A DNA stretch of 32,015 nt, taken from positions 1-32,015 of the forward strand of contig JTLS01000095.1 of the NCBI GenBank assembly GCA_000826855.1, read 5' to 3'. The position numbers and the translations under genes were made by a program. The notes beneath the pieces were generated by a model that was not told the origin of the DNA, did no database searches, and was given only the letters and a program-made list of their open reading frames with translations. Of this stretch, positions 2,438-4,446 are shown in pieces. This DNA is from Basidioascus undulatus (Eukaryota). How positions within the stretch are numbered: position 1 is the stretch's first letter; each line of letters opens with the position of its first letter.

Positions 2438-2445
2438 TATATAAA
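2438..2445 (+). promoter_or_regulatory. TATA box of the repeat-precursor gene
   Basis: TATATAAA followed by a CT-rich leader and an ATG at 2598. Confidence 0.7.
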
Positions 2446-2597: not shown

Positions 2598-3550
2598 ATG
2601 TTCACTGCCACCGCTTCCTCCCTCGCTCTTGTCCTCCTCTCAGCTGCCTCGATCGACGCCGGTCTTGTGCCGGTCCGCACCCGGCTCGCGCGCGGGGATA
2701 CCAACATCGCCAACAAGGTCGACACGAACTTGGAGTGAGCTTTCTGTCCCATTTGTTAAAGAGCTTGCTGACTGGGGCTGGCTCCGCATATCGCCTGCGT
2801 ATACAGTGTCGACATCGAGCAGTACAACTCAAAGCACTACCGCCGTACGCCCGACAACGGCCCGATCAACATCGGCAACCATGTAGACGTCGACTTCGAT
2901 GTCAGTCTTGTTCTCAATTCAATAACCATGCTGCTGGCGACGCTCAGTGTCTACTTACGCACCCGCAGGCCGACATTAGCGACTACAGCCATGACTCGCA
3001 CAAGTGGAACCGCCGCGGCCACGGGCCCATCAACATCGGCAACGATGTGAACGGTGAGCCGGCACAATTTGCCACATTGCATTTCGGCACTGACTGACCG
3101 GTTCTCTCCCCCTCATTCGCAGTCGACTTCCAGGCCGACATCAGCGACTGGTCCTCCTCGCACGACCACTGCAAGCGCGACGACGACGACGACGGCGATG
3201 TCAACATCAGCAACGAGGTCAACACGAACGTCAGGGCCGACATCGAGCGCTACGAGAACAAGTCGCACGGCGGTCACTGTCGCCGGCGCCGCGACACTGC
3301 CCAGCATGAGGACTCCACGGCTAAAGGTAAGCACTTGGGGTGACCTGAATACCCTCTATTAAAACTTACCGGGAACAATGATTTCACAGATGAGTCGGGC
3401 GACAAGGAGAAGAAGTACCGCAATGAGAAGTTGGAGGACAAAGGTGATTGTCTTTCAATCTTTTACTACTCCCCGTAGTCCCAGGGCTGACAAAGCTCCG
3501 GAGTTCTAGACAAGAAGAAGAACGAGTCCAAGCACTACTCCCGCGGTTGA
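2598..3550 (+). CDS. Secreted Kex2-processed repeat protein (KEP)-like peptide precursor, ~204 aa, 6 exons
   Basis: Exons 2598-2734, 2807-2900, 2969-3053, 3123-3326, 3390-3443 and 3510-3550 join in frame through GT-AG introns. Signal-peptide-like MFTATASSLALVLLSAASIDA, then four repeats (NI[AGS]NxV[DN][TV][ND][LFV]x[AV]DIxx[YW]) each ended by RR, RR, KR or RRRR, then a charged tail. Confidence 0.8.
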
Positions 3551-4367
3551 CATCGCCAAGGTCAACACGAACCTGGACGGTGAGTTGCGCCCTGATGGAG
3601 ACATTGCAATAATGACACCAATGACCTGTGGAGCAATACACTTGATCTGCAGGAGTACAAGGAGAGTAAGTACTAAGTGATGCTGGCAGCATGAGATGAG
3701 CGTGGACCGTGTAGCCGCGTTGTGTTGTGTTTTCTAGTCCGCTCGCGCTGGTCGCCCAATTTTGATGGTATTGAGTTTATTTAACTTTTGGGAGCTTGGA
3801 ACTACGATCCTTCGATGTTCGGAAGAAGAACACGAACGCGGTGGTCGAGTTAGCTCCTGGGGCTGCGTTGCAGTTCGGGTGCAGAAAACTCGGAGCTCAG
3901 GGATCAGCACGGGCAGAGGGCGCAGACTGCAGATAATTGTGGATATGATGATGGAGTCAGCGTAAAGGGTGTTCAGAACAACGTGTTGGGGGGTAACGGC
4001 CAGGGCATCTCCTGGCTTTATCTCGCTTTACGCGGCTGGTCTGGCTGCAGAACGTTTGTGGGTCTCGCACTTGTACGAGCACGGGGTTACGATTAATTCT
4101 GCATTGCATCTTCTGCCCGTGTTTTACTTTGGGTGGTGGTGAACCGCATATGAATTACCCCGGAGGCGTGCATTGATGTGAAGCCTCTCACGTTGTCATA
4201 CTCTGCGATTACAACTAAGCTTTAAGGCTGCGAGTAGGGGGGGATTCGATGGGATGGTGTAGCTCACTTCGGTGGTGGGTGAGTTTCGCTGATACGCATG
4301 GTCATGGTTGTGCTCGCGAAGATGCGGTGGATAGTCTAATGGGAACAGGCAAAAAGAAAGATAAAAA

Positions 4368-4446
4368 GGCAAGATAGGAAAGTGGTCAAATCCGCTAGCT
4401 TCAGGTGCTAGTCTTCGGTTCGTGGGTTCGAATCCCACTCTTGTCA
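4368..4446 (+). tRNA. tRNA-Leu(CAG), intronless, with atypical D-stem and short variable arm
   Basis: Acceptor GGCAAGA/TCTTGTC plus A73; anticodon stem CTAGC/GCTAG with loop TTCAGGT; T-arm GTGGG-TTCGAAT-CCCAC; T-run shortly downstream. Confidence 0.9.

Follow-up and report, generated by a model that had tools for sequence, protein, structure and literature searches.

The closest described systems to the gene reported here are the Kex2-processed repeat proteins (KEPs), whose repeat types are as a rule restricted to a single genus according to two surveys (PMC6339444; PMC7329392). For most KEP peptides the function is not known, and in the literature surveyed Ustilago maydis Rep1, whose peptides make amyloid fibrils after KEX2 cleavage (PMC3133707), was the one structural case found. 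On the side of the protease, published work on Kex2 states that Arg is required at P1 and Lys or Arg preferred at P2, with an aliphatic residue at P4 and with Thr or Pro tolerated at P2 (PMC8528282).

The locus compared with these systems lies at 2598-3550 on the forward strand of the window, the whole 32,015-nucleotide stretch of DNA that was analyzed. The original prediction, made from the letters of the window, had proposed a hand-spliced, secreted precursor of amphipathic peptides resembling the Rep1 repellent system.

A six-exon gene for a predicted secreted repeat protein

Joining six exons across 2598-3550 (+) yields an open frame of 204 amino acids in which each intron boundary is GT-AG, each of the five introns (63-72 nt) carries a branch-like site, and GC3 of the coding sequence is 85%. 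Retention of any single intron (all five were tried) ends the frame prematurely, at 46-202 amino acids, and the same six-exon model was chosen by a simple gene finder based on codon usage, whose training set included these exons. The hand-spliced protein was recovered with the same text, and the sizes of exons 1-4 and the five intron positions are repeated in a paralog on another contig (C2702). On this evidence from the DNA we consider the gene to be real and to encode a predicted secreted protein of 204 amino acids with four repeats separated by RR or KR.

A TATA box is present at 2438..2445 (+), and the paralog has one upstream as well; directly before it, at 2364-2420, are three copies of a 16-nt GC-rich unit that the paralog does not have there. 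Exon 1 (2598..2734), read from the joined open frame, encodes a putative signal peptide (about amino acids 1-21; 2598-2660) placed by a hydrophobicity heuristic only, a propeptide (2661-2693) whose sequence ends in the monobasic site RLAR, and the first half of core 1. Both the frame and the paralog support the next four exons: exon 2 (2807..2900) with the end of peptide 1, RR (2841-2846) and the first half of core 2; exon 3 (2969..3053) with the end of peptide 2, RR (3011-3016) and the start of core 3; exon 4 (3123..3326) with the end of peptide 3, KR (3173-3178), all of peptide 4, RRRR (3281-3292) and the start of the tail; and exon 5 (3390..3443) with 54 nt of charged tail, the corresponding exon of the paralog being 273 nt. 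Exon 6 (3510..3550), placed by the frame, holds the end of the tail and the stop codon; all of these features lie on the forward strand. An N-glycosylation sequon is found by sequence inside the core of repeat 4 (3203-3211, +), in both paralogs. The hydrophobic N-terminus expected of a signal peptide is present as a stretch at amino acids 10-19 with a mean KD of 2.39, and the same heuristic detects no membrane segment further on. A Pfam search with four exon pieces returned no match.

Upstream of the gene, the segment 774-1547 contains inverted arms (1019-1036 and 1522-1539) and a 21-nt hairpin (1266-1313), as well as four CTGTCAG/CTGACAG words compared with only two in the other 29 kb, and pieces of it match four other contigs at 71-83%; it is possibly a decayed non-autonomous transposon. 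On the other side lies a tRNA-Leu(CAG), recognized by sequence at 4368-4446 (+). The neighbors within 4800-26000 are ordinary, including a dynamin-like gene (weak Pfam match), the complex I 51-kDa subunit and CLN3/BTN1, along with genes that we take from their translations to be ribosomal protein S5, GPI8, an expansin-like secreted protein and a cyclophilin. No peptide-tailoring cluster was seen among these neighbors.

A paralog with an intact fifth repeat

The paralog on C2702 has exons 1-4 identical in size to those of the window gene and the same five intron positions, one of them with a GC donor, and its repeat region is identical at 120 of 130 residues. Between the two genes dN/dS is 0.10 over the repeats (p 4e-11) and 0.32 over the signal and propeptide, and the introns share only 49-72% identity; by these substitution patterns the repeats are under purifying selection. 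All dibasic sites (RR, RR, KR and RRRR) are kept in the paralog, the point of conservation on which the proposed processing scheme had been staked. As the flanks of the two genes are unmatched, the C2702 copy is a dispersed duplicate and not an allele.

The paralog also possesses a longer charged tail, an intact fifth core and a seventh exon. Alignment to that fifth core places a relic of its first half at 3542..3579 (+) in the window, out of frame behind the stop codon and with its donor still present at 3580, and a relic of the seventh exon, corresponding to the second half of the core, at 3642..3676 (+), where the splice acceptor is lost. Small deletions have broken the fifth repeat across 3542-3676, putting it out of frame past the stop and removing the last acceptor. 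Because the lesions are separate and lie in two exons, sequencing error is an unlikely cause. Judged from this alignment, the window gene descends from a five-core ancestor and has been cut down to four cores.

Kex2 sites and predicted peptides

Across 17 gene models of the family described below, KR or RR occurs in every one of the 24 linkers between consecutive cores, compared with a mean of 10.7 and a maximum of 18 in 5000 rounds of shuffled linkers, and in 18 of the 24 both residues of the pair fall among the 16 that precede the core (5.3 expected). The first cores of these 17 genes are more varied, with four having KR/RR, seven a monobasic xxAR-type site within 8 residues, one starting straight after the signal peptide, and five following a long leader with no Kex2-type site close by. 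The genome carries one kexin gene, with S8-type catalytic motifs, a P domain and a membrane segment, which gave the single P-domain match above cut-off. Given dibasic sites in all linkers and a Kex2 encoded by the genome, the window gene is classified by sequence as a KEP with an undescribed core, and its expression, secretion and cleavage are very probable. The proposal of a secreted Kex2 precursor is borne out by these sequence criteria, namely the sites kept in the paralog, the complete set of linkers and the kexin gene. Its claim that each peptide is flanked by dibasic sites stands for RR, RR, KR and RRRR but not for the first site, which is monobasic (RLAR in the window gene and LRAR in the C2702 paralog, with an earlier VRTR as an alternative). 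Judged by the P1, P2 and P4 preferences of Kex2, RLAR is plausible though not canonical.

Cleavage at these sites would release four peptides, all on the forward strand. Predicted peptide 1 (2694..2840) has 25 amino acids, a net charge of -3 and an uncertain N-terminus, and spans intron 1; peptide 2 (2847..3010) has 32 amino acids and a net charge of -6, and spans intron 2; peptide 3 (3017..3172), with 29 amino acids, a net charge of -5 and a C-terminal Cys, spans intron 3; and peptide 4 (3179..3280) has 34 amino acids, a net charge of -7 and a C-terminal Cys.

Anatomy of the core

The cores follow the consensus P-[IV]-N-[IL]-x-N-x-V-[DN]-[TV]-[DN]-[LF]-x-[FIA]-x-[LI]-[ES]-[ED]-[FYW]-x-H. Within it, 88-100% of cores have a hydrophobic residue at positions 1, 3, 7, 11 and 13 (96-100% at positions 1, 3 and 7) and 75% have one at position 15; position 9 is Thr or Val, and positions 2, 8 and 10 are Asn or Asp in 81-96%. 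For all four cores of the window the 180-degree hydrophobic moment exceeds that of their own shuffles (p 0.0015-0.009), which upholds the reading of the cores as amphipathic and beta-type; across the family the moment is greatest at 180 degrees, with 45 of 48 cores reaching significance, a partly circular result in that these cores were picked by a profile. The alternation of hydrophobic and Asn/Asp residues is strong, as had been proposed, but it is not strict. Position 5, on the aliphatic face, is Asn in 46 of 48 cores, the polar face also carries G, A, S, K, H, E, Q and R, and the alternation breaks at positions 17-18, leaving the aromatic residue at 18 out of phase.

At the end of the core, the motif hydrophobic-[STDNQE]-x-x-[EDQ]-[FYW] is found in 34 of 48 cores, 23 of which have a strict cap residue. 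A helix N-cap with an N'-N4 hydrophobic pair (PMC4515027) has a similar pattern, which suggests that the core terminates in a helix-cap-like motif. The four window peptides contain 1-3 His each and are acidic and hydrophilic throughout, with net charges of -3 to -7 and GRAVY values of -0.66 to -1.49, and profile searches, in libraries that may not include Rep1, yielded no match linking the cores to it. The suggested likeness to the Rep1 repellent is not upheld by these values, and for peptides that are net acidic and hydrophilic a water-repellent coat would be less likely than a charged fiber or gel.

The core recurs in at least 20 genes

The same assembly (32 Mb, 2992 contigs) was searched with the exons, with other members and with DNA patterns, and the 23 loci obtained were then scanned with a profile, which detected 48 cores in 20 genes. 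Both counts are lower bounds and leave aside four weaker candidates under the threshold; further to these are one clear core on C669, a C1733 fragment and, on C601, a tandem pair of divergent genes. The core DNA patterns, which were designed from known copies, gave 21, 11 and 20 matches in the genome as opposed to 3, 1 and 0 with reversed controls. In addition, when 39 cores from other genes were made into a profile, it scored all four window cores at 5.2-19 bits, compared with 1.2 bits for the best of 740 decoy frames; core 4 ranked above the decoys but weakly, at 5.2 bits. The original prediction of a single precursor gene has therefore to be replaced by a large family of at least 20 genes in which the core is a module, often present once per protein.

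Eighteen of the 20 family gene models begin with a hydrophobic stretch, and none of the 20 has a later membrane segment. The models are automatic and rough, and the gene finder behind them had these same genes as part of its training set; C2277 yielded none, and those of C298 and C147, of the middle of C490 and of the end of C2297 are poor. Three layouts are found among them: 3-7 tandem cores (about seven genes); two cores with His/Lys-rich spacers between; and a single core, then an acidic stretch, then 250-450 residues in which Lys, Glu, Tyr and Pro abound and Cys motifs occur. The proteins contain 20-49% charged residues and up to 8% His. In the single-core proteins on C721, C687, C907, C2297 and C86 the same elements return: an acidic block, the motif HHGGY[WF]G, long repeats rich in Glu, Tyr, Lys and Pro, and an end rich in Cys. 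The parts of these proteins that were tested found no match in Pfam or the ESM Atlas.

The best pair of loci reaches 82% DNA identity across stretches of at least 300 bp, the C298 copy has a frameshift, and the copies on C147 and C1733 appear degenerate; this combination of low pairwise identity and degenerate copies fits birth-and-death evolution. Allelic copies were rejected as the source of the family, both on that best pair and because the window gene and the C2702 gene do not share flanks. Introns split 18 of the 48 cores at five positions in all, 11 of them at one common position, and each of the first three cores of the window has an intron position unique to it. The C601 locus (L060) holds two tandem secreted genes on the minus strand, near 3315 and 793, in which diverged cores are followed by KR-rich heptad-like repeats, and which possibly represent an older branch of the core family.

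Searches outside the genome

Comparison of exon 4 with longer proteins gave four candidates, none of which scored, and a search with a 27-row core alignment gave 7999 candidates, none at E<=10. A 13-row profile run against 1.84 billion representatives returned two matches (E 3-6e-4), both of them unrelated long repeat proteins. In JGI metagenomes, none of 127 core-pattern matches was confirmed, and the sole metagenome match to a DNA pattern (L065, 1283-1315) was dismissed as chance, lying inside a phage major capsid-like gene. The ESM Atlas had no usable match for two family members, and Pfam searched with 27 core segments gave four unrelated single matches, all under the cut-off. The nearest basidiomycete proteins to the complex I subunit exon in the window are 86-91% identical, with Mixia and Pseudohyphozyma closest and no supported clade. 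The host is accordingly a basidiomycete, probably a member of the Pucciniomycotina, and the databases searched seem to lack the proteome of any close relative. As the core is only 20 residues long and even these nearest housekeeping proteins are just 86-91% identical, the blank searches are weak evidence that the core has no homolog outside this genome.

No description of the core family was found in the literature, including full-text searches with core strings; two KEP catalogues may include a relative. Together with the lack of a Pfam match above the cut-off, this is in keeping with the initial impression of a family not recognized as described. Since genus-restricted repeats are the rule among KEPs, an unrecognized repeat is by itself ordinary.

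Proposed assembly of the peptides and alternative explanations

We propose a mechanism, which we judge to be evenly poised between true and false, in which the released peptides stack into beta-tapes triggered by pH or Ca2+ and single-core members attach long, charged, extensin-like tails to them through the core; assembly and a role for it, taken by themselves, are slightly favored. The precursor would stay disordered until cut in the late Golgi, where Kex2 would act at RR, RR, KR and RRRR and probably also at the monobasic site behind the propeptide, giving four peptides of 25-34 amino acids and a charged tail. Each peptide would present a strand of 13-15 residues with an aliphatic face, bearing one invariant Asn, opposite an Asp/Asn-rich face, followed by the helix-cap-like motif and a short His-containing end. 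Outside the cell, low pH or Ca2+ would screen the acidic face, and the strands would then pile up through their aliphatic faces as beta-sheet tapes or amyloid-like fibers, either on the cell surface or within the matrix. With the same core in about 20 secreted proteins, co-assembly could display long tails rich in Lys, Glu, His, Tyr and Pro. Precedents come from Rep1, a fungal KEP that gives rise to surface amyloid (PMC3133707, PMC4617103), and from acidic designer peptides of alternating pattern, among them (LE)8 and P11-4, which gel with Ca2+ or at low pH (PMC6473879).

Several observations speak against this mechanism. Strongly acidic peptides oppose in-register stacking unless their charges are screened, and the sequon in the repeat-4 core of both paralogs could block it. 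AlphaFold2 paired no cores within a natural precursor of four cores, whether given the single sequence or an alignment of 23 rows (pLDDT 47.5 and 51.3, respectively), although monomers are uninformative on this point. Five of 17 genes have no Kex2-type site shortly before the first core. In Coprinopsis, knockouts of six KEPs had no visible phenotype (PMC9769878).

The main rival, which we consider unlikely, is that the core is a docking strand that, in place of stacking on itself, joins a folded partner at its edge, be it a wall scaffold, a sorting receptor or a host protein, and so anchors or sorts the charged tails. The neck linker of kinesin-1 is a docking strand with an Asn latch, and it supplied the best PDB matches of the family profile (8tt7, E 0.003; a His-tagged construct, 0.0006). 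An invariant Asn on the buried face, the strand-then-capped-helix pattern (34 of 48 cores by the loose definition and 23 by the strict one) and the many single-core members would all suit docking. The kinesin match, however, drops to E 0.11 and 1.5 with core-centered profiles, which makes chance or convergence its likely origin and led us to reject homology, and the seven genes that give 3-7 cores each are closer to a bulk material than to a tag.

Less probable again is that the products diffuse and act on a receptor as signals or hormones. The layout of the precursor is that of alpha-pheromone and other KEPs (PMC6339444), and MiSSP8, a protein with KEX2-site repeats, affects hyphal aggregation (10.1101/218131). 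Conservation in the core, however, has a two-residue periodicity across 15 positions and no short epitope, copies within one gene differ greatly, and single-core members fuse the core to tails hundreds of residues long. Only marginally weaker, and improbable in our estimate, is the idea that the products are disordered hydrophilic protectants or binders of metals, minerals or ice surfaces, in which the Asp/Asn face and His tails act and assembly is secondary. The charge and His content of the family, its predicted disorder and a regular Asp/Asn face that could bind cations are compatible with such a role, which nevertheless leaves unexplained both the near-invariant aliphatic face at positions 1, 3 and 7 and the cleavage sites.

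A protein that stays uncut, its cores folding together in one chain as a beta-solenoid or sheet, could account for the Asn-ladder-like positions and the tandem arrangement, but KR/RR in all 24 linkers, linker lengths that vary widely, the many single-core members and the absence of any intrachain fold in the AlphaFold2 predictions render it very improbable. Finally, a precursor of cyclic modified peptides of the dikaritin RiPP type, which shares the signal peptide and Kex2-flanked repeats with Tyr, Trp or Phe (PMC7329392), is given hardly any likelihood. No UstYa/DUF3328 match was obtained among 30 window frames scanned (a genome-wide UstYa search was blank, as was its control, and is thus no sign of absence, and the gene sits 2.6 kb from the contig end), and the cores are much longer than those of ustiloxin.

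Returning to stacking strands, a more ambitious and rather doubtful version holds that the 20-residue acidic beta-core is a universal polymerization tag and that an extracellular fiber or gel, switched by pH or Ca2+, is built as a combinatorial kit, multi-core genes supplying Kex2-cut filler peptides and single-core genes supplying charged, Tyr/Lys/Cys-rich, extensin-like tails. If this were true, the family would form a surface polymer of fungi that differs from both hydrophobins and repellents. Co-assembly of the cores would amount to a new way of building fungal surface or matrix and to a natural tag for displaying cargo on fibers; if the cores do not co-assemble, this is one more lineage-specific KEP, a common thing.

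Comparison with known systems

Hydrophobins are recognized by an eight-cysteine pattern, which is absent here, the 204-residue protein having two Cys and no Pfam match. The tails of single-core members, with their Lys/Tyr/Pro repeats, have a composition like that of plant extensins and proline-rich wall proteins; the likeness is one of design only. Family parts (core segments and single-core parts were tested) had no Pfam match to extensins, chaplins or curli. The kinesin-1 neck linker (PDB 8tt7, 3kin) gives a weak profile match along the whole core and is an element of a cytoplasmic motor. A further likeness in design only is to the chaplins of Streptomyces, which pair short free assembly units with longer carriers (PMC3133707).

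The natural peptides of the core family look like designed pH/Ca-gelling beta-peptides. (LE)8 and P11-4 share with the cores the alternation of hydrophobic and acidic residues; they are synthetic and have neither a buried Asn nor a capped end, and the comparison is an analogy only (PMC6473879). Rep1 of Ustilago maydis is likewise a basidiomycete pre-pro-protein with amphipathic repeats of comparable length (34-55 amino acids) between Kex2 sites. It is described as one gene with established amyloid and surface activity, in contrast to a dispersed multigene family recognized so far from its DNA (PMC3133707, PMC4617103).

Like the KEPs, the window gene has a signal peptide (by heuristic), at least three repeats (four, and five in the paralog), KR/RR between the repeats and a Kex2 in the host. 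Long peptides are reported for basidiomycete yeasts in the KEP surveys and are predicted here as well, but those surveys give an average of 5.3 KEPs of all types per Basidiomycota strain, whereas at least 20 genes share one core in this genome (PMC6339444; PMC7329392). In a further difference, only about seven members of the family have three or more cores, the others having one or two fused to long charged tails. What stands out among these systems, as read from the genome, is the repeated use of a single acidic beta-core by at least 20 predicted secreted genes, often singly and with long tails.
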